Source: Ophelia neglecta
Taxonomy: Eukaryota
Assembly: GCA_965285935.1 (NCBI GenBank)
Contig: OZ260661.1
Span: forward strand, 132,184,001 to 132,248,000
Length of the DNA stretch: 64,000 nt
Direction: 5' to 3'
Shown: positions 1 to 39,206 of the stretch, piece by piece
Layout of the letters: each line of letters begins with the position of its first letter
Numbering within the stretch: the stretch's first letter is position 1
Translations under genes and position numbers: made by a program
The notes under the pieces: generated by a model
Databases searched by the model: none
Told to the model about the DNA's origin: nothing
The model's input: the letters and a program-made list of their open reading frames with translations, nothing else

Positions 1-157
1 AGACCGCCCAAGGGACTGGAAAATACTGGTCTGATTATGGAGGTGGTCTGTTTAGACAGGTTATTTTACATTGAAAGTTTGCAGTATGGTCTTTTAAAAG
101 ACCTAATTTCCAGGTGGTCTGAATATAGAGGTGGTCTTTAAGGCAGGTTTTATTGTA
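1..157. mobile_element. Right end of a Tc1/mariner(pogo)-like MITE, truncated by the window edge
   Basis: Repeated 'aggtggtct' subterminal motifs ending in 'aggcaggttttattg|ta'. The reverse complement TA|CAATAAAACCTG resembles the TA|CAGT-AAACC termini of common invertebrate TA-TSD MITEs. The left TIR is outside the window. Confidence 0.5.
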
Positions 158-160
158 CCT

Positions 161-549
161 TAGGAACAGGTCCTTAGAAGGTTAAGGACAGGTCCTTAGA
201 AGGTCAAGAACAGGTCCTTAGAAGGTCAAGAACAGGTCCTTAGAAGGTCAAGAACAGGTCCTTAGAAGGTCAAGAACAGGTCCTTAGAAGGTTAAGAACA
301 GGTCCTTAGAAGGTCAAGAACAGGTCCTTAGAAGGTCAAGAACAGGTCCTTAGAAGGTCAAGAACAGGTCCTTAGAAGGTTAAGAACAAGTCCTTAGAAG
401 GTCAAGAACAGGTCCTTAGAAGGTCAAGAACAGGTCCTTAGAAGGTCAAGAACAGGTCCTTAGAAGGTCAAGAACAGGTCCTTAGAAGGTCAAGAACAGG
501 TCCTTAGAAGGTCAAGAACAGGTCCTTAGAAGGTTAAGAACAAGTCCTT
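161..549. repeat. 22-bp minisatellite (caagaacaggtccttagaaggt), ~17.7 copies
   Basis: Directly visible: 'ggtcc' recurs every 22 bp (e.g. 191, 213), with only a few variant bases. Confidence 0.97.
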
Positions 550-1674
550 GTGGTGACCAGCGGTAAGAGGGCTGAGGTAGAGTGCTACAAGCAGGCTATC
601 GTGACAACCAGCGGTTCCATGGCGAAGCTGAGACCATTTTCTCAGCTCCTGATCATCACATTGTCGGATTTCTGCACGGCAAGATTCAACAGAGGAACAG
701 TGAGGTTTGGTATTAAAAGCTGGAGTACTGAAGAGTTTATAAGCTGTGCGGAAATCTCCAGTTTATAAGTAGTTTGATGGCAGTTTGCGAGGACAGTGTA
801 ACTCATTTATATTTAATTTAAAGACATGTTTACTTCAGAGACTCTCCTTTCTGTTATTAAGAAGGTCAATGAGTAATGTTTCAATGAAACCATAGAAAAA
901 GATCTACATGAGAACATAGAAGCTCATTTAGATATCTACCTTTTTATAAGCCAATTGGTTCTATAATCTCATCTGCATAAACACTAGTACTGCTGAACAG
1001 CCTGTATGGTACAACTTAGGTTAATTCAATTACACGTGTCCAAAGGAAATATTTTAGGGGCCTAAATTTAGTTTTTGCTACACGTCTTTCTATAGAGCAT
1101 ATACATATATAGCATAGGTTATATGCTTGAAGTCTGACATTTTGCAATTTATGTCGCAGGGTCTCCAGTCTAACATATCTAATACACTGTCAACTGGATT
1201 GGAAAATTATTACTTAATCAATATTGTCGTATTAATCGATGTGAAAACGTAGGCTTTTATCACATTTGAGGGCGTTAATCTTTATTTAAACCATAATTTA
1301 ATAAGAGGATAAAAGGGAAAACCGTTGTTGAACGGATGGGATAAGTTGTCAACCTTGATTGTACAAATGCCAAGTTTAATACCGAATCCGCACCGAACTT
1401 CCATTGAATTTACTAGATACGGTATATATATGTGTATGTGTGGAACGTTTGTACACGTGTAGCCTAGTATTACATTAAAGGAGCAACTCGCACTCTGCAC
1501 CTTAAAACATAGGTCTGTGTCCTCCTTATGACCTTGTACCGGTTGACAATGCCGCAGTATAAATTTACTACCGTTCTCGGGGGTGCAGTCTTATTTACTC
1601 AACAAACGTTGTCACTTTGAATAAGTCGACGATTGTCAACTGACCCTGTGTCTCTTGAAGTCCCCCCCCCCCCC

Positions 1675-1736
1675 CTCGCCTCTCCATAGGTGCTCTTTTT
1701 GGCCACAAGCCAAAGAGGGCAGCACATGGAGACGAG
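1675..1736. repeat. Imperfect palindrome, possibly a mini-MITE
   Basis: Left arm ctcgcctctccataggtgctctttttggc pairs imperfectly with right arm gccaaagagggcagcacatggagacgag. Confidence 0.5.
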
Positions 1737-4700
1737 TGTCGGCTTCGAAGGACTGGGAGTCAAATTATGATGCGTGGGTATTTTTCAACTGCTCGCATGA
1801 TGTTGATTCTTGTTTGTAGTGACAAGTCCTGTTTGCAGGTACAATACCAAATATTACAGAGATGTAAAATAACTATACCCAGCTCATCGACTGTGCTGTA
1901 CGATTACTTAAGGGATAATGGACACTACCCCCAGAGTTGTTCTAAAACCTGTCTGCATTAACAGTCTTGCTTCTGGTGGTAGGTGATAATGAAAGAAGGG
2001 ACCATCAGTCACGTGACTATTAAATTACCGATAATCTCCAATCGATTGTACATTGTTCAGAGGTGGTCTTGATGCCTCTGGCTCAGCAGGGTCGGCACAG
2101 CTGAGCACGATACTAGCCCATGATTGAGTTCGTCAATGACAAGTTGCTACTCAATCATAGCCTGACCTAAATTCTCAAGTATTTACTAGTTGCATAAGAG
2201 GATAATTGTGTCATAGTTTCTTATGTCATTCATCGAAGCAAAGACTTATACTTATAAACAATGTAGTTATAAAACCTGAGGTCTGGAGCTGTTAGGCCCT
2301 ACAATTAATGCTGCTCTTGGTCTGCCGTGACCGCCTCGCGATCGGGCTGTCAGTTTCTAATGGCTGGAGTTTTTGCGAACAATTAAGAATCCTTCACAAT
2401 GACGCTACCACATTTTTTTTTGAGTATTTTATCCCAAGTAGTTTTTTTCATTTGAGGCTACTATTCTATCTTTAAACACTGGATTGCAATATATATAGGT
2501 GTCAATAAAACCTCATTTGACCGCGAATGACAAGAACAGCACCCGCTCTCTGCGACTCAGTACTGCAGGCTTTAGGTATAGTTATAATAAATACCTGAAA
2601 TTCTGAAATCAATGAATGGACATTTTGCCAAAACATATCTAACCATCTGATCAAAAGTTTTCTGAGGCAACGAAAATTACGGGCCTTTGAAGCTCTGTTT
2701 TGCTGCAAAAAAACTATCGTCAATGTATGAATTGCTGAAAAAGTATGGACTTATTTAATGAATTGACCAGCCACCTTGATAAAATGGTTGAAAGCAGTGA
2801 CGTCTGGAGCCAGGCGTGCTAAATGGACACCTAATGACTTCCTCACAAAATAAATGGAATGTCGCGAAAGAGTCTATGGACGCCGGCATTCCAAAGGTCA
2901 GACGCCCTCTGGCGTAAACCTTCAACGAGCGCGGCCTACAGTACGCATCAACGGTAGGCCATATACGAACAGTCATATATTTATATGAAACTTGATAAAC
3001 ACATGCTCCCTGTGTGTCGTTTATGCCGCAAGCGTAAGACATAGTCAAGGCGAGATTTACGACAAAACCGCCATTTTTCGACTTCACAGGACGAAAGCCT
3101 TTCCTACGCAAACACCCTTCTAACCAGATGCGCCTGAGCGTCAGCTACAATCGCAGCTGATAAAAGTAAGACTAAACGCCGCGGGCATCCAAGACAACAT
3201 TAACCGAGCACATAAGTTGGACTTTAAAATCAATAAGCTTTCATGGTCGCTGAACGACGCCAATGTCAGATAAGAAGGTGTCGTGATACGCTGGTGTATT
3301 AACGGTTACAGGGTCCGGATTATAGGGGGTCGATGATATACGGGCTGACAGGCACTAAACAACAGATTAGTTCCATGAGAGTCCTGTAGGAGGTGTCTTT
3401 GGCACTAACCGCTCAAGTCGCAGGTGATCTGAAGAAACGGCGAATAGAAAGAGGGGGGGGGGGAGGGAGGGGGGGGGGCTTCAAAGACTCATCAGGTAAA
3501 ATGGACAAACACATGCACATTCGAAGGTGGTTATAGCTTCTTTCCTTTTGAATTGAATAATTAATCTAGCTTTAAGTATGAGAATGTACTTAATCACCGC
3601 CGTATAATGACGGCCTGGCTAAACTGGGAATGAAAAAGTCCAGACAATATCGCTTTTACTGTGGGATGTAATATTGTTATTTTCTCAATAGCACTGATTT
3701 CTCTTCCCTTTAACTTTATCTAAGCTGAAGCCTTGCACTGAACCGGTGGTCAGATAGAATTATACGTTAGGCTTGTTGTTGAATTTGAAATCATTAGAGG
3801 GCATTTAATCCTGACCGTTGCCTAGTGCTATTGGTGAACAAGTGACAAAAATATAAAATCAACAAAGAAAAAAACTTGATATCAAGCTTTACACTTACGG
3901 ATGTTTGTTTTTTCTAGTAACCAGCCCAGGGACAAATTCCCAAAGCACACTGTTTGCGAGACCACGGTCATTCAAAGTTCCTTGGCTTATTGCTATGACG
4001 CGATATCAAAAGACCTAGGGGATGGTTATCCTCTCGGCTGCCTTTTGGCGCCAAAATGGCAGCCGACACCCCTTAAAGCTCTTAAAATCAGGAAAGTGGG
4101 AATATAGCGCTGCCAGGCTTCCTTTTATCACCCTGAATTTAATAATTAAGGTACTTTTCCTGACATAAATGTGCCTAGGCCTCGCAGGTAAGGTGCACCG
4201 GCGTACTTACAGCTTCCCGGGAGGTGTCTAGGCCAAAGAGCGGAAACGCCTCCCATAAAAAATAAACTGTCAGAAGGCGCAACAGCAATGAGCCTACCAG
4301 TGCGATATGCGTAATATCGTAGCATATCTCTGTAATATCTAGAAAAACCAGCACATTAATGTTGAAATATGAAGGTGCTTGACTATACCACTGACCTACT
4401 TTTAATAAATTTAAAAAATGAAACGCTAATTAAGGTTAAGCAGTCACTGAATCGTGCGAGGATATTCGACCAAAAAGGTTCTTTTTCCTAAGATGTGTTC
4501 GTAGACATCTCTTGCTTTCAAAATCGGTGAAGTAAGTTGCCATGCTAGTATGTGTGGGTTGTGTTTGGGGGGGGGGGGGATTTCGCTACTTCCTGTTGCT
4601 TTCCTGTGTGTCGTCTGCTATTGTGAGTCAGCGTATTTACGGCAGTACAACCTTCCGCCAACGCCTGGCGTGATTCAGGTTCAATAAAACTCCAGAAAAT

Positions 4701-7700
4701 GTCCAGTCAAATAAACTTTGCGAGATGAGACTCTTGACAATAATGGACGCTATACGTACCAGGATAATGACACCCATTGCGATGGGTACCCGGAAACTAT
4801 TATTTGCCACCGCGTCCCTAAAGCGTCCTTCAAAACTTCCGGCACGTGATCAAAAGGCTTGGCCTCCGTTTTTCCTGTTAAAGGTTAATGGGCCCTACCA
4901 GCTAAAATGTGGCTGAATGTAGCACTTGGGGTTTCAACGAAACCACACCTTACGGGTAATGTGTCAATCGAGTTCAACAAACCGATATAAACTAGGCTAC
5001 ACTCCACGGAATCGGCGAGGTACACCAAGTCAGACGACACGTACCAAGGAAAAAGCCGTACGCGTCAATTACTTGCCGTCAGATTACCCATTTGAGACAA
5101 TCAGAAATTTTACCTTCAAGTAGCATTCAAAACATTCAGTGAGTGAACTAATACATAATTAATATTAAAGGTTATATTATTTGGGGCCATTAATGATGAT
5201 AACTTCACACTTATACGTCCGGCGTATTTGCCACACAGATCAATATAAAAACTACCGCGGGCGTCGGACTTTTTTTCTGAACAAGCGCACGTCAAAACCA
5301 ATAAAGTAGATCGCTGCCCTACGAATATCAAGTATCAACTTTTATTATTTATCAGTTTGTTTATAGTCAACTAAAACAGAAGTACTTAAGTAGCTGAGAT
5401 AATGAGTAACATAGTGTTACACGATGACAAAAAAGTAAGGTATTATAAATTCAAATCATATAGCAAATAAAGGGAATATTGAACAATTTATGAATTAATT
5501 TAACAAGAATAAAAGCAGATACAAAACTGTAAAAGTAAATAGCAAATTATAGTAATAAGTACAATAAATATAAGATGTGTAGACAATATTGCACTACTAA
5601 GCGGTTTCTAAATGTGTCAGATTGACGTTCACGGCTCCAATTTTGCGGCAAAAATTGCTTCATATTAGAAAAATCAATCAAATAAGCCATAAGCTCATCC
5701 CAAGTCCTATATTTGTATAGCATCGATGGCTGGAGGTTGCATATTCAAGGCTCATTTATCCTTCTTTCATTGACACACATTGTTATTCACCATTTGAAGT
5801 AAGAATATATTATTACATGATTACTGAAATTCGGAATTGAGTCATTGCATCGTAAAAAAGTGCAGGTATAATCTAAAAAAGAGCTCTCTGACAACTACAT
5901 TTCTTCAGCATGCATGCAGTTTCGTTTAGCAGAAACGGTCTGCCTCTTCAACACCACAGGCCCTTATTCATTGTTTACCATCTACTACGCATAAATAAAT
6001 TGATATATGGTTACGAAATAGATAATACATATAAGCAGTGGTAGGTAAAAAACACACACAGAAAACTGACTCGGATGACTGCCGTCAACACCCGCTCATC
6101 TGCCCGCGTATTTCTCGCGCTGCCCTTAAAATCTTCACGCTCGAGTATATACTTCTTGTACACATTACCATTCTATTCAAAATATATTCATAAAGGGGTG
6201 GTCATAGGGAACTTAGCCGATAGGTGGGCATATATCCATTACAAGGGGAGCTGGTTTTCGACCACATAGAAACTAAGTCATGATGTCAAATAAACACATA
6301 ACCATAATATTAAGATTAAGGCGTGCGGGGTGGGCGGGTTGGGGTGGATATCGGCCCCATAGGCCTACCCTCATCTGTATTTTATGCATGGTTGAGTGGA
6401 CTGGGCTTAACTGGTTTTCTAGTAGACACTTTAAACTTTCGTTCAGCCGACAGAACGATATAGGGGAGGGCCGGCTAATTTTGCGCACGTTTTAATCACC
6501 CAGAATGTGGGCTTATTCCGCGACGTCCGAAGTTTTTTTCAACCGTTCGTCTCCGTTTGCATGCGTTTCTTGTCCTATTCTAGATCGGGGAATGCGTGTC
6601 TTGTCGGGCAAAGTCCGGAGAGGTCCGTTCAATCCGACAGAAGCTTTAATGCAATAAATGCATATACAAAACCTGGTATGGACACCACCGGGCAAAGCCG
6701 TCCGCAGGTTGAATTGCGCTAAGCGCAGCGCCAACTCTTCTACTACCTGCGGGACGTTAGTTCATTTCTAATCATAGATGCGGACCTTTTAAATTACATA
6801 GTAAACACTTTTCATCATTCTTTTTTTAGTTGCCGAACTTTAAGGTATATATTTAAGCACAGTTTTACAATATATCGTTTTTGCGTGTTTGTGAAAATAG
6901 TAACCGGACTTTTATCCTATGAAATCCAGGTGGAGATGACAAATTCAAGTAATGCCTATATATCGGTGTATGACTAACGATTACTGCAGTACGAGTACGA
7001 GATATCAGAAACTACACAAATCTATCCCTGATCCCGCAATACACAGATCCAAATGTTAACTGAGGCCAATTTGCAGGAAAATAAGAGAGAAAGCTTGGTG
7101 TGATAGTTTAATAAACTGCCCCGTCTAAACCACAAGAAGTGTTCGACCCGTGGGGGGATCTACAATCTATGATTTTTAAGTTATATTCCACACAAATTGT
7201 GCTCGAAAAAAGCTAGTTACTTCGCGGATTTAAGCTGTTCGTGAAAGAGCCTGACACTTAACCAAAATGGCACCGTCCAACTTGGAATACTACCGCCGGT
7301 CGAAATGATTTACTTTGTGAAAGTCAAATAATATCTTTGGGGATTAAATTACACCTCTCCTTCCGCTTGGCTAACCAAGTGGAACGTAGATTAATAATGC
7401 CCATGCTCACTGATCTGAAATCACTAAGGAAACTGTGGGCGTGTCGCAGAGTAGGTTTTACTAAATAAATATCAATATATTGCTTGCCGGAAGAGAATGC
7501 GGAAATCTAAGAAAAAAAAATGAAAGAGTAGGTACATTTGTTTAGGTAAAAACGTATGTGCTGGTGCTGGTGGGTCTTGCTTTAGTAAAGTCGATCTAAT
7601 GGTAACATAGAGTCCATGAATGGCTACCTGAAATCAGCCAAAGTCTCATCAACTATATGTATACCTTTGTAAAAACCTAAACTAGAACCCGATTTGTAAC

Positions 7701-11035: not shown

Positions 11036-11268
11036 ATAACATTTGGGACGTGTTCTACATATCAGATTTAGCCGAGGTGGCAGAAAGGGTAGTGTCTATG
11101 CGTCTGGTGCCTTCCGCCAATGTCTCTATCTCCACAACCACAGGTTTCGGCCCTCCCTGTTGTTCTCCGGCTTTCTGTTAACGGCGAAAGCGAAAGCTGC
11201 GGCGAAAGCAGCTGGGCCTACTAAAATGAGCTTGCATGATCACAGTAATAACCCTACCCTAACCCCCT
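11036..11268. repeat. Left copy of a 233-bp target-site duplication
   Basis: Identical by eye to 13138-13370 (offset 2102). The two ORF-track translations starting at 11043 and 13145 are identical over the duplicated part. Confidence 0.95.
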
Positions 11269-12972
11269 GGCCCTCTGCAACACTGTAAGAAACAATCAAA
11301 TAACGTACTTTTATCATACAACGTACAGGAAAGTGTTCGTTACTTCACAAGTCGGGGTAGCAAGGTATATTCTGCCTTTCTAGATATTGACAAAGCATTC
11401 GATCGTGTGTGGTGGGATGCGCTCTTGTTAAAATTGTTTAAATTAGGCATACAGGGGCGATTATGGAAACTAATCCGAGAGTGGCTGATTGGGTCTAATA
11501 TGTGTGTTCTCGTCAATGGGACAAATTCTGATGGGTTTGACATTACACGGAGTATAAAGCAGGGGGGCGTTTTATCTAGCCTCTTCCTTGCTGTGGCTTA
11601 CTATGACTTACACGAGGTGTTGTTACGTACTGGAGATGGTCTCCAGGTGAGGGATATAGATGTGAGCAGCCCCACTCTTGCTGATGACACCACTCTCCTC
11701 TCACCCACTTGCGCGGGCCTGCAAAGAATGCTAGATGCGGCTAACCAATATGGTCGAAAGTGGAGACTGCAGTTTTCTCCAGCGAAATGTGAAATAGTCG
11801 TTTTCGGGGAATCCCCGTCACAATATAATAGATATAAGAACATTCGACGGTGGCATCTGGGCAGTAATGAACTAAAACAAGTTTACCGTGTAACCCATGT
11901 CGGTGTTCAACTGGCTGGTAACTTTGCCTCTAGTCAGCGTACTGATGATATGTGTAGTAAGGGCCGTCGACTACTGGCTGGACTTTCTGGCACAGGTGTT
12001 ATTAATAATAGGTTAAACCCACTGACCTCTTCAAAATTATGGACTCAAGTCTGCATTCCGTCTATGTTACACGGAGCAGAGGTTTGGAACGACCTTACTG
12101 CCTCAGAAATAAATCAGATAGAAACTGTGCATAGGTTTGCAGCAAAATCTATACAAGGTTTGATTCCCCGTACGCACACAGACATTGCTCTTTCGGCATT
12201 AGGCTGGACTTCAGCCGAAGGTATCATAGACAATAAAAAACTCGCATTTCTTTTGAAACTAGTCACTTTGCCAGTTAACCATTTGGCGGTCTCACTATTT
12301 CGTGTACTGTTGGACGATTACCAGAATACTGATGATAAGAGTCAATATAAAGGTTTTATTCCTGATATCATCAGGGTCCTTGGTAAATATGACCTTTTAG
12401 ATATTTGGTCACAATATGAAACAAGTATATCTTTTCCGGCGAAACACTTATGGAAGAACCTTGTTAAATCTGCCATTAGTAAAAGCGAAACTGATCGAGC
12501 GAACAATAACATTAAACAAAATTTGGACTGCTTGCTCTTTATAAATATCCACCCACAGCTGTTTGAAGCCCCATTGAAATTGTACTATATAGCTAAGCGT
12601 ATTCCTTCAATTCTCAACCATATAAAGAATTTATTGTCACTTTTATCTCTATATAACTCGTGTCTGGAAATCAAGTGTGTTTTGTGTGATTATCAAGTTA
12701 TTGATCCTCTCGGTCACATGCTTTGTGACAGTGGCTGTGCTTACTTGTCTGATCTCCGCAATGTTATGTGGGAGGATATTGTCAATTTACTGGATCCTCC
12801 AGATTTTGTTAAATTGTATAACCTTTCGCACGATGTAAAGTTCATACCTGCAGTACTTGGAAATGAACAAATTGTTAATATTGATGGTAGTAGGTACGAT
12901 GACTTGGTAAAAATAGTAGTGGAAACATTTGGGCCTTTTTCAAAGGCCATATATACATATTCTTACTTATAA
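11269..12972 (+). CDS. LINE ORF2 fragment: reverse transcriptase plus C-terminal Cys/His region (no endonuclease, 5' truncated)
   Basis: The frame is open upstream of the annotated GTG at 11407 (PLQ..SYNVQE..FLDIDKAFDRVW). It continues with KQGGVLS, LADD, FSPAKC, SMLHGAEVW and a C-terminal CVLC..H..C. Confidence 0.9.
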   Translation, partial: GPLQHCKKQSNNVLLSYNVQESVRYFTSRGSKVYSAFLDIDKAFDRVWWDALLLKLFKLGIQGRLWKLIREWLIGSNMCVLVNGTNSDGFDITRSIKQGGVLSSLFLAVAYYDLHEVLLRTGDGLQVRDIDVSSPTLADDTTLLSPTCAGLQRMLDAANQYGRKWRLQFSPAKCEIVVFGESPSQYNRYKNIRRWHLGSNELKQVYRVTHVGVQLAGNFASSQRTDDMCSKGRRLLAGLSGTGVINNRLNPLTSSKLWTQVCIPSMLHGAEVWNDLTASEINQIETVHRFAAKSIQGLIPRTHTDIALSALGWTSAEGIIDNKKLAFLLKLVTLPVNHLAVSLFRVLLDDYQNTDDKSQYKGFIPDIIRVLGKYDLLDIWSQYETSISFPAKHLWKNLVKSAISKSETDRANNNIKQNLDCLLFINIHPQLFEAPLKLYYIAKRIPSILNHIKNLLSLLSLYNSCLEIKCVLCDYQVIDPLGHMLCDSGCAYLSDLRNVMWEDIVNLLDPPDFVKLYNLSHDVKFIPAVLGNEQIVNIDGSRYDDLVKIVVETFGPFSKAIYTYSYL

Positions 12973-13137
12973 TCTACATTACATAATCATATACATTAAT
13001 CAATTGTACCAATGAACTATTATCTAATTGTTGTATATAACTTTGTTTTGTTTTTTGGGTTTTGTTTTTTTGAATTATGTACTATATCTTTGGCTGTATG
13101 CTGCTCCGATTAAGTTCGGGATAATAAACCTATAATA
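11269..13137 (+). mobile_element. 5'-truncated non-LTR retrotransposon (RTE/RTEX-like LINE)
   Basis: Open RT frame from the junction to 12972, a short 3' UTR and a (taa)n-like tail 'aataaacctataata'. Flanked by a long perfect direct repeat. Confidence 0.9.
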
Positions 13138-13370
13138 ATAACATTTGGGACGTGTTCTACATATCAGATTTAGCCGAGGTGGCAGAAAGGGTAGTGTCTA
13201 TGCGTCTGGTGCCTTCCGCCAATGTCTCTATCTCCACAACCACAGGTTTCGGCCCTCCCTGTTGTTCTCCGGCTTTCTGTTAACGGCGAAAGCGAAAGCT
13301 GCGGCGAAAGCAGCTGGGCCTACTAAAATGAGCTTGCATGATCACAGTAATAACCCTACCCTAACCCCCT
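13138..13370. repeat. Right copy of the 233-bp target-site duplication
   Basis: Identical to 11036-11268 and begins within the LINE (taa) tail. Confidence 0.95.
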
Positions 13371-13495
13371 TGTATCAAAAAGAAAACCGAGATGTTTGGG
13401 TAAGGGTTTGGCTATAAAATGACGGATATTATAAATAATTGCTCTACCAATGCTGCTTTCGCCACACCTTTCGCTTTCGCTGTTAACACAAAGCC
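13271..13495. mobile_element. MITE with GGC...GCC TIRs, 9-bp TSD and telomere-like core (Merlin/MULE-like)
   Basis: TIRs ggctttctgttaacggcgaaagcgaaagctgcggcgaaagcagc / gctgctttcgccacacctttcgctttcgctgttaacacaaagcc. Flanks ttgttctcc (13262-13270) and ttgttgtcc (13496-13504) match at 8/9. The interior has ccctaccctaacccc and gggtaagggttt. Confidence 0.8.
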
Positions 13496-26535: not shown

Positions 26536-29500
26536 CTAGAGATCAGAGTAATGCATGCCTCTTGTGGGTCCAGCAGCTACTGGTTTCATCACTCCCATGC
26601 CCCCAGGTCCCGGAGCTTTGACATGCGAAATCGGGCCTGATTTGGTGGGTGCGAAGGCCGATTTTCCGGGACTGAACGACATCACTGGACCACTAGCTGG
26701 TTTGACGGGGCTGAAGCCTTGTCTGGCTTGGGACACTTTGGATGGCATTCTGGGGCTTATGGCGGGTTGGGTTTGCTTGCTAGGACTAAAGGCCGGTTGA
26801 GCAGGCCGAAAAACCTGCTGTGATGACTGGGCAGGCCTAAAAGCCGGTTGTGCTGCATGTGTTGGTCTAAACACAGGCTGTGATGGCCCTGCTGGCTTAA
26901 ATGCAGCCTGGGTCGGTTTAGCAGGACTGAACGAAGCATGTGCTGGTTTGCCAGGGCCATAGGTTGGTGGAGCTTGTTTACCTGGGCTATAGGCAGGTTG
27001 TGCAGCAATGAATGCCGGCTTGCTGGGGCTAAACATTGGTCGAGGACCCTGGCCAGGGCTTTTGGGGGCCATTTCAGGCCCATGTGTTTTCTTCTGAAAG
27101 GTTCCCCCGGAAACCGGGGCGTTCTCTACAGGTGGCGGGTGCTGCTGCTGTTGGGCACCTCCAAATTTGGGCTTGGAAGAAACCAGGTATGGAGCCAAAC
27201 TATCGCTTTCAGTTTCATCTCTGGCTTTGGGAGGCTGTGTCGCTACGTGATCAGGCCCGAAGAAATTTTCATTTCCTCTAACAAAATCTTGTTTAAGGAC
27301 GAATCCTCTAGCTTCCAGAGATCGGATTCTGGACAGCTGCCAGGGTTTCAAGTGACTTGTATCAACATCTTCGCCTGCTGGTCGCTGCAGGATCGCTGAC
27401 GAGCTGTCCACTTCAGATGTGCCATACCGCTCTTGCCATGGCTTTGACTCGGCGGGTACGTGGCCCGTGTGTACCCCGAAAGGTCTGGCTCCGCCGGCAA
27501 CCGGCTGGTTCTGTCGAGGGGCTAGTGGTGTTCGGTCACCTATCTTCACTGCACTGACATCGGGAATAAACTGACCCGGCTCGCGGCGCACCCCTGGCAC
27601 AAACTCTCCGGTCGTCCGCTGAGGAGAATGAGGGCCGTTTGTTGCAAAGCTTGGCGCAGGTGGTGGAGGGGCGTAGTGTGCTTTTGGCGTGGTCGGTGCT
27701 GTGGGTGAAGGAGGTGCTTGTGCCCCCGATGGGGGTCCATGAGGAGCCTGACCGCCAAGAGCGGCTAGTCGGGCTTCCTCCTGGTCTTCCGCTCTTACAG
27801 CCGCGGCTAGGGCAGAAATATATTCAATAGGTTCTTGCTCCGGCAATGAAGTTTCCTGTTCCAGTTGCTCTTGATCTTCTTTAATTTCCTCTTCCCCTTT
27901 CAACCTCTCCTCCTGCTCTCCCGGCACGGGGTCGTGTACAGGAGAGGGTGGGGGTGTTTTTGGTTTAGGGGATGGTTGAGGCGATGGGGGTTTAGGAGGA
28001 GGAGTTACAGGCTTCGGGGGCGGAGTTGGGCTCTTTGGCTTAGGAGGGGGAGGCGACTTCGGTTTTGGTGGCGGTGGAGGTGGTTGGGCGATATTGTAAG
28101 GATCTGGCATAGGCATTTTCTTAGCAAAGATTCGGTCCATCCCAGGGAGACAAGGCACAGCACCTGCCGGGAGCCCCTTGGGTAGTCCTTGGGCCATCCC
28201 GGCTCCTTGGCCTGGTCCAAAGCTCTTCCCGGTACTACCGAAGCCAGTCCCTGATTGAGAGTCGCTACCAGGTTTGTCAGACATGATTCTAATCCCTTCT
28301 GCAATCTGCTGGTTCCATGGTGGAATCTCTCCTACCAACTCTTGCTTGGTGTGCAGTGGAGGAGGCCTGTGCTTGTGCCCAGCTTGTCTGTGTTGTTGTT
28401 GGAAGTGCAGACCTGCTTGAAGAGGTCTATCTATGCCTTTCGAATCTATAGGCTTGCCATCCAGGGTGTCAGTAAAGCTTGGCATACCGTCAAGCAACGC
28501 TCGAAGGTGATTCAGCTCCACAGAGAGTTCCTGAGCCTGTCCACGAGCAGTCAAAACAACGCTTGGCCTGCAAGACTTGGTCTTCTTTTCGTTATCGGAT
28601 TTAATCTTTTCCACGTCTTCCTCGTCCAATGCTGCGTGCTGTGTTTTTTCGGGCACGTAAACTCCTTGCGACATTGCCGAACCGACCACAGATCCCATAC
28701 CGCTGAAGTAAAAAAGAGAGTTATAGAAATCGTCAGGCAAAAGACCATAGTCGGGACGGCGGATGTACTCGAACTTGGTTTTGGGGATTTCTGGCTCGGC
28801 TGGTTTCGGTTCCTCTTTCGGTTTCTGATTCTCCTTCTCTTCCAGGATTTTGGACACCTCCTTATCCTCTTCGGCCTGCTCGGAGACTTTTTCTGGAGGC
28901 GTCTCGGTGGGCTTAACATGTTCCTCTGGTTTTTGTTCAGCCGGTTTTTGCTCTGTTGTTTTTTGTTCAGTCGGCTTTTGGTCAACTGGTTTCTGCTCTT
29001 GTGGTTTTTGCTCTATTGGAGCAACAACTTGGGCCACTGGGGCTGGTTTGGACTCTGGTGTCTTTACTGGCTCTGCTGTCTCAGCCTTAGGCTGCGCATC
29101 CGTCTTAGCGGCTGCCTTTGGCTGAGCAGGCTTATCAGCAGCTTCCTTTGGCCCTTCCATATCAGAGACGTCCGAAACTACGTCGATGTTGGCCTCCAGA
29201 CAAGACGAAAGGTCAAGGTCTACATCACCTGCAGATTTTATGGACATAGTGGGAGCCTCAGGCTTGCTCACTGTAACTTTGCCTACTGTTTCTTCTTGTT
29301 TTCTTTCAACTGTCACAGTAGCGGTCATGGTTGGGGCTTCCGGTTTCGATACAGTAACTGTGCCTTCTTTGGCCGCTGATTGAGCGGCTGCCTGTGGCTT
29401 CTCTTGTTCTACTTTTTTGGCCGGTTCTTGGGGTTTTGCCTTTTCCCCCTCACCTTTCTTAGAGTCAGGCTGCTTGACTTTCTCAATCGGTGGTTCTGTC

Positions 29501-30898
29501 TTTTTAGCCACTTCAGCCTTTGGTTGTTCTGAAATTTTGGTAGCATCCTTCTTTGGCTCTTTTGTTGTCGGTTCTGCCTCCCCTTTCGATTCTAACTTCT
29601 TCGCTTCGTCGATTTTCGGTCCCGGCTTTTTGGCTTCTTCTGTCTTTGGTTCTTGCTTTTTAGCTTCTTCCTTTTTTGGTGCTGGCCCTTTTTCCTCCTC
29701 TTTCTTTGGTTCTGGCTTTTTAGCTTCCATTTTCGGTTCAGGCTTTTTATCTTCTGCTTTCTTAGCTTCAGGTTTTTCGGCCTTTTGCTTTTCAGGCTCA
29801 GGTTTTTTAGCTTCTTCCTTCTTTGCCTCTGGCTTCTTAGCCTCCTCTTTTTTGGACTCTGTTTTCTTCTCTTCTACTTTTTTTTCTGGCATTTTTGGCT
29901 CAGGTGTTGCCACTGGTTCTTTCTTAGCTACTGGTTTAGGTTCTGGCTTCTTTTCAGGTTCTTTCTTTGGGACCGGCTTTGTTTCAGGCTTCTTCTCTGG
30001 TTCCTTCTTCAGGGCCTCCTTAGGTTCTGGCTTCTTCTCCGGTTCTTTCTTTGTAGCCGGCTTAGGTTCCGGCTTCTTTTCGGGTTCTTTTTTAGGGGCT
30101 GGTTTAGGTTCAGGCTTCTTCTCCGGCTCTTTCTTTGGAGCCTCCTTAGGTTCTGGCTTCTTTTCTGGTTCTTTCTTCAGAGCCGGTTTAGTTTCAGGCT
30201 TCTTTTCCGGTTCTTTCTTTGTCGCCGGCTTAGGTTCTGGCTTCTTTTCTGGTTCTTTCTTCAGAGCCGGTTTAGTTTCAGGCTTCTTCTCCGGCTCTTT
30301 CTTTGGAGCTTCTTTAGGTTCTGGCTTCTTTTCGGGTTCTTTCTTCAGAGCCGGTTTAGTTTCAGGTTTTTTTTCTGGTTCTTTTTTCAGAGCCGGTTTT
30401 GCCTCTGGCTTCTTTTCCGGTTCTTTCTTTGCAATCGGTTTAGCTTCTGGCTTCTTTTCCGGTTCTTTCTTTGCAGCCGATTTAGGCTCTTGCTTCTTCT
30501 CTGGTTCCTTCTGTGGAGCGGACTTTGGTTCCGGTTTCTTCTCCGGTTCTTTCTTTTCCTCTACTTTTTTGGCTTCTGGCTTGGAAGGAGCCTTTTTCTC
30601 TGGTTCTTTTTTTGATGCTGGTTTTGGTTCAGCTGGTTTTCCTGCCGCTTTCTTTTCCTCTGTCTTCTTGGGCTCTTCCTTTGGCTTTTCTTCTTTTTTG
30701 TCCACCTTTTGCTCTTCCTTCACTTCCGGTTTTGGTTCGGCGTGTTTCTTGGCAATGGGTTTTTTCTCTTCAACTTTGTTGTCTTTTTTGCCGCCAATAT
30801 TCAGTTTCCCAACTCTTTTTGGACCATGGGCGTCTTTTTTCGGAACTTCCTCTTTTGCTCCTTTGTTTTGGAACATTGCCATCCGATCCTTGGCACTC
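26536..30898 (-). CDS. Giant terminal coding exon of a Lys/Glu/Pro-rich (PEVK-like) repeat protein, ~1457 aa with the upstream exon
   Basis: 4363 bp without a stop. Acceptor 'ttattacag|G' at 30898; the ORF-track start at 30954 is AT-rich intron. Repeats vary mostly at synonymous positions. Stop TAG follows ...GMHYSDL. Confidence 0.9.
29884..30555 (-). repeat. Coding 42-bp (14-aa, KKEPEKKPExKxxx) tandem repeat, 15 full units plus 1 degenerate
   Basis: Seen directly in the translation. Confidence 0.95.
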
Positions 30899-32513
30899 CT
30901 GTAATAACATAATTGGGAATCTTTGATATAACAAACAAATAATCTACATGGCAAAGGGACTCTTTAGTTTGGTTTATAGATTAAAAAATAAGCTTCCCAT
31001 ATTACATTTATCGTCAGAAACTTTTTGTTGTGCATTAAGCACTTCATTGATGGAAAGATAAATATCGTTCTGCCTGTAGGTCAGACAAAGAAATTCAATT
31101 TCTCGGAGATAAACGTTTTCTTAAAAGCAGGCTAATATACTAATACATTTATGCTAATTCAGTGTTATGGCCATTTTAATATTCTAGATTTGCAGCAAGC
31201 TTTAACTTTCCAATTGCAAAGTGCGAAAACAGTCGCCATAATAAAACATAATAAGACCAGCACTGTAAGGGAGAAAAAATTATATTAGATCTTCATACAA
31301 AATGCCATCCAAGCAGTCACGTGTAGACCGCATTGGCCCTGAAACATGGAGAGCTGAGGGTCAAAGAAAGAGAAATAACACAAGCTTATTGCATGAAATT
31401 AAGACGGCAACACACTGGAGTAACTACAATAATTCTAGACAGGCTTTCCTTCTGAAAACTTATTACTTCATTCGTATTGTAAAAATGTAGTGTAGTGAAT
31501 AAAACACTTTTATTTGAATATAAGAAAGTATATTCATGAAACAGAAGGCAAAAAAAAAACTGAGGGATTATTTCTAATCAGTGACGAAACAAAAGACACA
31601 CAAATAACACAACACAAGGCGAATTATGGACATAATGATAACTTTAGTGGCACATGCGGTGATTTTCTTTGGTCAAATGCTTTGACCCGCAATGTCGATT
31701 TTTAGATGCAATACTTGTAAGAGTCAAACCATTCAATAAATCGACTTATAAGACCTGGTCCATCCACATTGACCACGTTCTCTTGTGGGTAGCTTTTGCT
31801 TCATTCGAATAATCTATGCATATAGGGTATGTTGTGGAATAGGGTATTTGCCAATGTTTACAACCAACTTTCAAGAGAATGAAAATTTTCTTCATGATAA
31901 GGTGTATAAAACATGAATGTTTTTTATTGGTGCAAATTTGAATGGCGGTTTTGGGTTGGCCAAAATTGGGGCATGTGTGTAATGAAGAATAATGCATGCC
32001 GTGGGACAAATATGGTATCATTAATTGCGCTTTATATACCATTAGTTGCGACACATCAACACGATATGATGCGCGTCTAGGTTTGACCCATCCACGCTCA
32101 GCATTCGTTAAGTCTTCTGGCTTTTGAAAGTTCAAATGAACATTCTATGGCGTTATCATTTTCTTGAAAGTTGGGCGTAAAGAAATATGGCGACAAAGCT
32201 CGTTACTTCAGGTAGACGGTCATCATGATAATGAAATAAAAAGGTGCAATGCAACTATTTTCTTCAGTTCCTTCTCTTAAGCCGTTCTATAATATGCTAC
32301 TTGCAAATCTCATACTTGCATAGTAAAAGCAGTACAACAAGTGTGACGGACGGCAAACGTTTGATAGATATTTTGTTGTTTGCTGAACCTAGTTTGATCT
32401 ATATTCTACATAGAATGAATCAAAAGCTACCTTGACAACAGACAACGTGGTCACCTCGTGAACAAAGCCTCGAAGATTTGGCGCCAATCGGCTGAAACCT
32501 GTTTACTACTTAC

Positions 32514-36890: not shown

Positions 36891-38957
36891 TATATAGAAC
36901 ACTACAACTCTGGGCTGCAATGTATTTTGGATAGGCATGCCCCAGTCATTGCGAAAACTTTCACAGTCAGGCCTCATAGCCCATGGTACACCGACGACTT
37001 GCGTGAAACTAAGCGTGAACGCAGGAGGGCTGAAAGAGCTTGGAGAAAGTCTGGCCTGCAGGTGCATGCTCAGATTTTCAGTGACATAAGTGCAAAAGCC
37101 AACTACCTCTTAGACAGGGCCAAGCAGGACTATCTGCGTGACAAGGTGGATCAGGCCTCTGGCAACAGCAAGGAACTTTTTAAGGTGACAAGAGAGCTGG
37201 CGGGTGACAAGGGTGACATTATATTGCCTAGTCATAGCTCATCGGAACACCTTGCAGAAAGATTTAGTGATTTCTTTTTGACCAAGATTGTCACTATCAG
37301 AAATAAACTTGGTCACTCAAACTCCCAGAGAAATTTTTTGCCATCTGAATATGAAACTGTTTTTGATGGCTTGCCTCTGGTTTGCTTGGACCCAGCAACA
37401 CCAGAGGAAATACAAAAACTAATTATAAAATCACCAAATAAAGCATGTGAGGCAGACCCTATACCCACTTGGATAGTGAAGGACTGTGTAGGAGAGCTTG
37501 CTCCAATGATCACCGAAATAATAAATAGATCTTTGTCATCGAGTCATGTCCCAGCTTCTTTCAAAAGAGCTATAGTGCGCCCCCTCCTTAAGAAGTCTGG
37601 AATGGACAAGGAGCTACTTAAAAACTACAGGCCAGTGTCAAATCTGCCTTTCATCTCCAAAATACTGGAGAAAGTCGTGGCGAAGCGCATAGATCACCAC
37701 ATCACTAGTAACTCACTGGCTGACAACTTGCAGTCAGCATACAGGAGTGGCCACTCCACAGAGACTGCTCTTCTTAGGGTGCAGGCAGACATAGCCTCGG
37801 CCCTTGACCAAGGGTCAGTAGCAGTGCTAATCATGTTGGATTTATCTGCTGCTTTTGACACTCTGGACCATAAAATAATGTTACAGAGGCTAGATAACAT
37901 GTATGGCATTCGGGGTGCTGCTTTATCATGGATAGCATCCTACCTTGAGAAGCGCAACCAGTGTGTGACTATCAATGGAACAGAATCTAGGGAGAAAAGC
38001 TTTTGTTTTGCAGTACCCCAGGGATCAGTGCTCGGTCCCAAGCTGTACACCCTTTACTGCAAACCTGTTGGTGCTATCATCAAAGACCACAACATGAACT
38101 ACCATAGTTATGCAGATGATACCCAAATCTACCTTGTCCTAAAATCCAGGTCGGAGGTTTTGAAGAGTGTTAATGAGATTGAGCAGTGTGTTGCTGAAAT
38201 ACAGGCATGGATGGAAGTCAACATGCTTAAACTGAACCAGGACAAGACTGAAATAATGTTCTTCTCCCCTAATCAAAACAAATGTGTTCCCGAAGGCTTG
38301 ACTTTCTCTCTAGGAGGCTGCGAGATCAAGCCGGCCACATCGGTCAAAAATTTAGGCTGCGTATGGGATCGCTCGCTCAGCATGGAGCTGGAAGTACAGG
38401 CTAAGGTTAAATCCTGCTTCTGGCAGCTTCGGAGGATAAGCCGGATTAGGCGTTTCATGTCGGAGGATGTGTGTAAGACACTTGTTCAAGCGTTGGTGAT
38501 TTCCCGGCTGGACTATGGCAATATTTTGTTGGTCGGCTTGTCAAAGTGTCTCCTCCAGCAGCTCCAAAGCGTGATGAACTTTGCTGCGCGTCTCATTACA
38601 TTCACGCCGCGGCAGCAGCACATTACACCAGTGCTAAAACAACTTCACTGGCTTCCTGTCAACAGGAGAATAGAATACAAAGTTCTCTTGATGACATACA
38701 AAGCGCTCAATGGACTTGCCCCTCAATACATCACCGACCTTCTACAGATATACCAACCACCTCGTCTGTTAAGGTCAAGCACCAGGTCACTGCTCACCGT
38801 TCCTCGCATGAGAACTGAAACCTACCGTCAGCGATGTTTCATGTATGCTGCACCTCACTTTTGGAATGAACTCCCGAATGGTTTAAAACATGCAAAAACT
38901 GTGATGTCTTTTAAAAGAAGCCTGAAAACCCATCTTTTTATCAAAGAATACAATTGA
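36891..38957 (+). CDS. L2 ORF2 fragment (reverse transcriptase, endonuclease missing)
   Basis: The frame is open from 36891 (EHYNSGLQCILDRHAP). Motifs include NYRPVSNLPFISKILEK, QSAYRSGHSTET, LDLSAAFDTLDH, VPQGSVLGP, YADD, KLNQDKTE and LHWLPV. Confidence 0.95.
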   Translation, partial: YIEHYNSGLQCILDRHAPVIAKTFTVRPHSPWYTDDLRETKRERRRAERAWRKSGLQVHAQIFSDISAKANYLLDRAKQDYLRDKVDQASGNSKELFKVTRELAGDKGDIILPSHSSSEHLAERFSDFFLTKIVTIRNKLGHSNSQRNFLPSEYETVFDGLPLVCLDPATPEEIQKLIIKSPNKACEADPIPTWIVKDCVGELAPMITEIINRSLSSSHVPASFKRAIVRPLLKKSGMDKELLKNYRPVSNLPFISKILEKVVAKRIDHHITSNSLADNLQSAYRSGHSTETALLRVQADIASALDQGSVAVLIMLDLSAAFDTLDHKIMLQRLDNMYGIRGAALSWIASYLEKRNQCVTINGTESREKSFCFAVPQGSVLGPKLYTLYCKPVGAIIKDHNMNYHSYADDTQIYLVLKSRSEVLKSVNEIEQCVAEIQAWMEVNMLKLNQDKTEIMFFSPNQNKCVPEGLTFSLGGCEIKPATSVKNLGCVWDRSLSMELEVQAKVKSCFWQLRRISRIRRFMSEDVCKTLVQALVISRLDYGNILLVGLSKCLLQQLQSVMNFAARLITFTPRQQHITPVLKQLHWLPVNRRIEYKVLLMTYKALNGLAPQYITDLLQIYQPPRLLRSSTRSLLTVPRMRTETYRQRCFMYAAPHFWNELPNGLKHAKTVMSFKRSLKTHLFIKEYN

Positions 38958-39139
38958 AACAATTTGCATTTTAAATAACTAGATTATATTTTACACATTA
39001 TAGGTAAATTTTAATATTTTTAGCATGAAATTTTATACCATGGACTTACTTTTATTTAATCATGTTAATGTAACTGTAAATTGGTCATGCTTAAATGTAA
39101 AGCGCTTAGAGCTTTGTATAAGCGCTGTATAAGTACATG

Positions 39140-39140
<1 letters not shown>

Positions 39141-39206
<66 letters not shown>
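39141..39206 (+). repeat. (TAA)n microsatellite, the L2 3' tail
   Basis: Directly visible. Confidence 0.97.

Follow-up and report, generated by a model that had tools for sequence, protein, structure and literature searches.

A truncated LINE between identical repeats

Sequence analysis of the window, by which we mean the entire 64,000-nucleotide stretch of Ophelia neglecta DNA studied here, located a 5′-truncated LINE copy between two identical direct repeats. The features of the locus are as follows.

11036..11268, + strand: left copy of the target-site duplication (exact match to 13138-13370)
11036..11168, + strand: host DNA within the left duplication copy, with no other match in the genome search
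11169..11268, + strand: opening 100 bp of a MITE (~225 bp) interrupted at the LINE 5′ junction (matches intact MITEs elsewhere)
11263..12972, + strand: open frame encoding the C-terminal half of ORF2, with RT, thumb and CxxC-H-C knuckle
11265..11268, + strand: 4-bp microhomology between duplication end and LINE 5′ junction (LINE contigs of three runs align from 11265)
11269..13137, + strand: LINE copy truncated at its 5′ end, comprising the final ~1.9 kb of an element of ~5.77 kb (96.6% to positions 3877-5779 of full-length L033)
12973..13137, + strand: 3′ UTR with T-rich tract, (TAA)n tail and small predicted stem-loop at 13105-13120
13138..13370, + strand: right 233-bp duplication copy (exact match), its first three bases continuing the LINE tail
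13271..13495, + strand: intact ~225-bp MITE that predates the LINE insertion; its terminal inverted repeats measure 44 bp

The repeats agree at every one of 233 bases (11036-11268 = 13138-13370) and enclose 1869 bases; identity breaks at once at both ends. This confirmed the sequence-only reading, which had described perfect 233-bp repeats bracketing a 1869-bp RT insert, and the length could be refined. The (TAA) tail merges with the ATA that opens the right copy, as had also been claimed, so that three bases are common to element and repeat at the 3′ junction; the last four bases of the left copy (11265-11268) match the element as well, and the true duplication is thus 226-233 bp. The frame at 11263-12972 matches RVT_1 (E=4e-18) and has neither a start nor an endonuclease in the window copy.

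Among the best 40 of 1603 candidates found in the 762-Mb genome, the first 133 bp of the repeat matched only its two places in the window, and all remaining matches were confined to bases 128-233. Only the right-hand MITE (13271-13495) is complete, the left-hand one breaking off at its base 100; the complete MITE is 86-92% identical to all eight other copies compared. MITEs of this ~225-bp type are abundant in the genome, some with apparent 8-9-bp target duplications. Removal of the insert together with one copy of the repeat leaves unique DNA and one intact MITE, which fits a target duplication and not an LTR. A very recent event, as originally suggested, is supported by the absence of differences between the 233-bp copies and with the 0.24% substitutions separating the LINE from its nearest sister, L024.

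An RT frame bracketed by perfect direct repeats could also be explained by an LTR-like element of which the 233-bp repeat is the terminus. However, no other copy of the family carries the 233-bp repeat; the copies are flanked by different sequence, the repeats differ at every locus, and full-length copies show LINE anatomy. An LTR retrotransposon was therefore rejected, its probability being negligible, and the locus only mimics one, as the first reading had it.

Three sequencing runs of one sample (X1, X2 and X3), which may be the source of the assembly, hold the region as contigs. X2 and X3 each have an upstream contig ending at 11065 and a contig of 163 nt whose first base is 13138; in both, a contig of 53 nt spans the 3′ junction without any difference, with 23 letters on the element side, below the tool's 31-letter bar. 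The depth of the junction contig was ~0.6 of that of the flank (7 vs 11.2 and 12.2 vs 20). No junction record was present among the eight records of X1, one contig of which extends from the flank upstream past the start of the duplication. An empty allele had been proposed as a check, and this contig is compatible with one but is no proof, since contigs drop variants and all runs come from one sample. The window differs from the single flank contigs by 4, 16 and 15 letters in 1.6-1.7 kb, roughly 1%. These data fit a window insertion that is real and possibly heterozygous.

Two further features were noted in the window. On the minus strand, 26536-30963 contains a 1475-aa open frame rich in Lys/Glu/Pro repeats, which is probably a single very large host-gene exon. 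A second LINE (36891-39200, plus strand), which we take from its motifs to be L2/Crack-like, has an open RT frame of 688 aa and ends in a long (TAA)n tail; no flanking repeat of more than 10 bp was found in the range checked.

Copies and anatomy of the family

A pattern search of the genome for the 3′ end of the element found 20 copies. As L036 and L037 have their flanks in common, these copies represent 19 independent insertions. All 20 share the 3′ end with its simple-repeat tail, and their 5′ ends vary from reference position 1 to 5707. Full-length copies of ~5.77 kb encode a 565-aa ORF1 (present in L025, L027, L031 and L033) and a 1170-aa ORF2, in which APE and RT motifs are followed by a C-terminal CxxC-H-C knuckle; the L033 frame matches PF03372 (APE, E=8e-12) and PF00078 (RT, E=6e-24) in Pfam. 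The best fold match of the ORF2p model (pLDDT 81) is L1 ORF2p (E=2e-35). The distance to the nearest sister is 0.24-2.3% per copy (13 copies compared). Judged by these sequences, the family is a young APE-type non-LTR retrotransposon (LINE). Both frames are full-length and open in L031 and L033, two of the five near-full-length copies, so the family looks active, as had been proposed.

Apart from APE and RT, Pfam found no second nuclease domain in ORF2, and in the model the C-terminal 300 aa are predicted to be helical apart from the knuckle. A single loose PD..D.K match in L033 is not conserved across 16 aligned homologues. Membership in Dualen/RandI was rejected on these grounds, there being no restriction-like endonuclease after the RT by Pfam or in the helical C-terminus of the model. 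ORF1 gave only sub-threshold coiled-coil matches in Pfam, with no esterase domain, and no match at 0.9 in the protein atlas, where the matches below 0.9 are unnamed.

An ORF1, an APE-RT-CCHC ORF2 and a microsatellite tail make up the layout of Proto2 and RTEX elements; the ORF1 of RTEX carries an esterase domain, although not in all members. With its ORF1, its APE-RT ORF2 with CCHC knuckle, its microsatellite tail and its ~5.8 kb, the window family is Proto2/RTEX-like and likely belongs to one of these two clades, but this layout is shared with other clades and alone does not decide membership. The first reading had compared the element with the RTE group and Rte-1 of C. elegans, which reportedly makes a ~200-bp TSD. 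This comparison was not upheld for RTE proper. According to the literature, the RTE clade shares the APE-RT and TSDs starting with tail-like bases but has a single long ORF and no substantial ORF1 (43 aa in RTE-1; PMC1291365), unlike the window family with its 565-aa ORF1 and C-terminal CCHC. TSDs are given there as mostly 7-15 bp in the RTE clade and 7-18 bp in L1 (PMC6007223), and mean lengths of curated bivalve elements as 5675 bp for Proto2 and 4937 bp for RTE-X (PMC10294476).

Two observations concern the 3′ UTR. The pairing of the stem-loop is kept in sister families by a G-C to C-G double change, which suggests a conserved RNA signal. Four of the shortest copies (L039-L042) start inside the T-rich tract, a possible preferred point of truncation.

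Long duplications at family insertions

Measuring the TSDs of other genomic copies had been proposed as a check on the window insertion. An own junction-to-junction duplication was found at 10 of the 19 independent insertions, with a median of ~1.25 kb:

L035: 37 bp
window copy: 233 bp
L041: 516 bp
L032: 690 bp
L025: 858 bp
L033: 1653 bp
L024: 1730 bp
L028: 2780 bp
L030: ~2850 bp
L031: ~4800 bp

Nine of the 19 insertions have duplications of more than 200 bp and ten of more than 30 bp, and the ten duplications amount to ~16 kb of host DNA. The TSD of this family is thus long against the usual 5-20 bp, as had been stated, but 233 bp lies at the short end and understated it; the suggestion that host DNA is duplicated at each insertion proved true of these ten and not of every one.

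The repeat sequence is different at every locus, and the 19 sites are all different. Each repeat starts at the tail and ends at the 5′ junction, with at most ~15 extra bases; at the 5′ junctions there is either microhomology of 0-4 bp or a small number of additional bases. The repeat starts are tail-like, scoring 65 against 38.5 ± 3.8 for random positions (11 loci including L027; 0 of 10,000 draws), which supports the proposed TAA-like priming site and ties that end to tail-primed reverse transcription. Substitutions between paired copies range from 0 to 5.5% and increase with the divergence of the element (Spearman 0.69, p=0.04, n=9), as expected if the copies were identical at birth. No correlation was found between the length of the duplication and that of the insert (rho 0.44, p=0.20, n=10).

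Eight of the 19 insertions are without a repeat; their best short junction matches are of eight bases or fewer, and none is of 9-20 bp. L026, L029 and L040 showed no distant duplication, their flanks being single-copy genome-wide apart from common repeats, and L036/37, L038, L039 and L042 were searched for repeats over ~7.6 kb upstream and 12 kb downstream. At L034 the downstream flank matches a place 245 kb upstream at 99%. A 245-kb duplication was rejected here: homology with that place also covers the upstream flank, and the far end that such a duplication predicts does not match. L034 sits in an older segmental duplication, and the empty paralogue shows a ~40-bp target deletion.

Arrays host three of the 19 insertions, namely L024, L027 and L038 (periods 1291, 706 and about 870-1170 bp). 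In the 1291-bp array of L024 only the 1730-bp register has no mismatches (12 at 439 bp and 52 at 3021 bp). In the 706-bp array of L027 registers of 563, 1269 and 1975 bp fit about equally; this locus was considered ambiguous and stands outside the ten. TRF detected no array at L028, L031, L032 or L033.

These arrays, and the segmental duplication at L034, raise the question of whether the repeats are tandem duplications that predate the element, or assembly errors, with the element simply lying between them. Read contigs support the 3′ junction of the window copy, the kilobase duplications being known from the assembly, and at one locus of a sister family (D9) a 99.9%-young element is flanked by a repeat of only 89% identity. 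Against such an origin, the repeats end exactly at both junctions in DNA that is not arrayed, the cut MITE shows the direction of the event, and the divergence of the pairs (0 to 5.5%) tracks the age of the element. Furthermore, the youngest pairs differ by 0-0.4%, below the roughly 1% between window and contigs, and the window 3′ junction is present in contigs of two of the three runs. We regard pre-existing repeats or artefacts as very unlikely.

As a control we surveyed a very young unrelated family, presumably L1/Tx1-like from its motifs and poly(A) tail, with 21 copies that are 97-100% alike and a full length of ~5.6 kb. A short duplication of ~10-20 bp was called in 13 of the 21 copies and a 434-bp duplication in one; of the others one lies in an array and six gave no call. 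The control copy with the 434-bp duplication, which includes 29 bp of family-copy tail, interrupts the tail of a window-family copy at L029/L058 (G000:C5:28.265-28.270 Mb). This case shows that the host can produce such a structure for any LINE, and long duplications are known as rare events elsewhere, for example at one of 25 ZfL2-2 insertions (1228 bp; PMC2666801). It could therefore be argued that repair in this genome yields long duplications whatever the element. The frequencies speak against a host trait, long duplications being present in 10 of 19 insertions of the window family versus 1 of 21 control copies (Fisher p=0.001; one control family, 6/21 no call, one in an array), which makes the long duplication a family trait as far as one control family can tell. 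An explanation by the host alone is accordingly given very little credence.

In sister families, with ORF2 46-53% identical, repeats adjoining the junctions were found at 4 of 21 loci (tblastn lines cover 12 of the 21). These repeats of ~37, 140, 190 and 270 bp are rarer and shorter than those of the window family; the long-duplication trait is common to the lineage and strongest in the window family. One very young sister family (L120, L124, L126 and L130, that is D9, D11, D12 and D14; ORF2 46% identical) has copies 99.0-99.96% alike, and D14 has a perfect 190-bp duplication. The 89-90% repeats around the young elements at D9 and L141 were treated as older repeats; the 89% repeat at D9 probably predates the 99.9%-young element. 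Among metagenome relatives no flanking duplication was found at 54 loci, on contigs mostly no longer than the element.

Proposed origin of the duplications and their meaning

The only comparable family that we found in print is Dualen, with routine ~1-kb duplications. As described in PMC9977147, more than half of Dualen-4b_cRei insertions in Chlamydomonas reinhardtii have duplications of over 50 bp, with a median of 900 bp, which the authors attribute to a pair of endonucleases, APE and RLE. The footprint of the window family is alike, about half of the insertions being duplicated with a median near 1 kb. The window family differs in having APE as its sole endonuclease, in its ORF1 and (TAA)n tail, and in residing in an animal-type genome; moreover, Dualen duplications were seen de novo, whereas those of the window family are known from assembly copies. 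The window family works like Dualen in footprint and is not a Dualen. A Dualen-type footprint in a one-endonuclease family makes the two-endonuclease explanation unnecessary.

Other reports of long duplications describe different situations. R9 of bdelloid rotifers has a 126-bp TSD as a family trait (as cited in PMC9977147); this length is fixed and the element is specific to an rDNA site, in contrast to 37-4800 bp at 19 different dispersed sites here. Rare duplications of 1-10 kb at L1 sites, for which break-induced replication was proposed (preprint 10.1101/2024.12.14.628481), have the same structure and size range, as does that of ZfL2-2. In those cultured or cancer cells this is a rare outcome, whereas here it is seen in about half of inherited insertions. 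For Proto2 and RTEX no report of long duplications was found in the openly accessible literature, including PMC12477816 and PMC5753468; Repbase and subscription papers lie outside this search.

The observations could be explained if this young single-endonuclease LINE makes only the first-strand nick, the target being copied by host synthesis ahead of the joining of the far end. We consider this reading probable (about 0.6). The APE domain would nick a TAA-like site, where the (UAA)n tail would prime reverse transcription, and no second nick would follow ~10-20 bp away. The upstream host end would instead be freed, likely when a replication fork meets the nick, and break-induced or strand-displacement synthesis may carry it tens to thousands of bases over the target. 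Microhomology-mediated joining would then link the extended host end to that of the cDNA. Were the host end resected instead, a blunt join or a deletion would result, as may have happened at L034.

The standard model for TSD length is classic TPRT (PMC2666801 and PMC9977147), in which a second nick, here a distant one, would be made by the element's own endonuclease or by a second ORF2p, with the staggered region unwound and filled in. The first reading chose this model, placing second-strand cleavage 233 bp away, and it is also the one given for Dualen. Its final structure is the same, and the family-specific nature of the long duplication points to the element's protein. Finished insertions look identical under both schemes, and it is from such insertions that we infer the steps above. 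Host extension was preferred to a distant nick on account of lengths that range across two orders of magnitude, the lack of short TSDs, the occurrence of deletions, and the demanding requirement that up to 4.8 kb of duplex be unwound between nicks. In addition, no shared far-end motif was seen by eye, and ORF2 has no second nuclease domain. A distant nick thus seems rather unlikely, while deserving serious consideration. Counting against host extension are the eight of 19 family insertions without duplication and one that is ambiguous, the rarer and shorter repeats of the sister families, the 434-bp duplication in the control family, and the missing correlation between duplication and insert length.

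More tentatively, the same may hold for a widespread Proto2/RTEX-like lineage of invertebrates, whose elements would make no nearby second nick and rely on host replication restart, with kilobase duplication as a routine footprint. A published TSD search accepts 10-49 bp within 200-bp flanks (PMC6007223) and with these limits could not see duplications like those of the window family, whose truncated copies would also be miscalled as LTR elements. If the proposal is true, pipelines seeking TSDs of less than 50 bp have missed this footprint, and the lineage would be an unrecognised source of small segmental duplications. Pieces of the size duplicated here could carry exons or enhancers with them. 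Cleavage and synthesis of the second strand form the half of LINE integration that is understood least, and the intact copies of this family offer a direct assay of that step.
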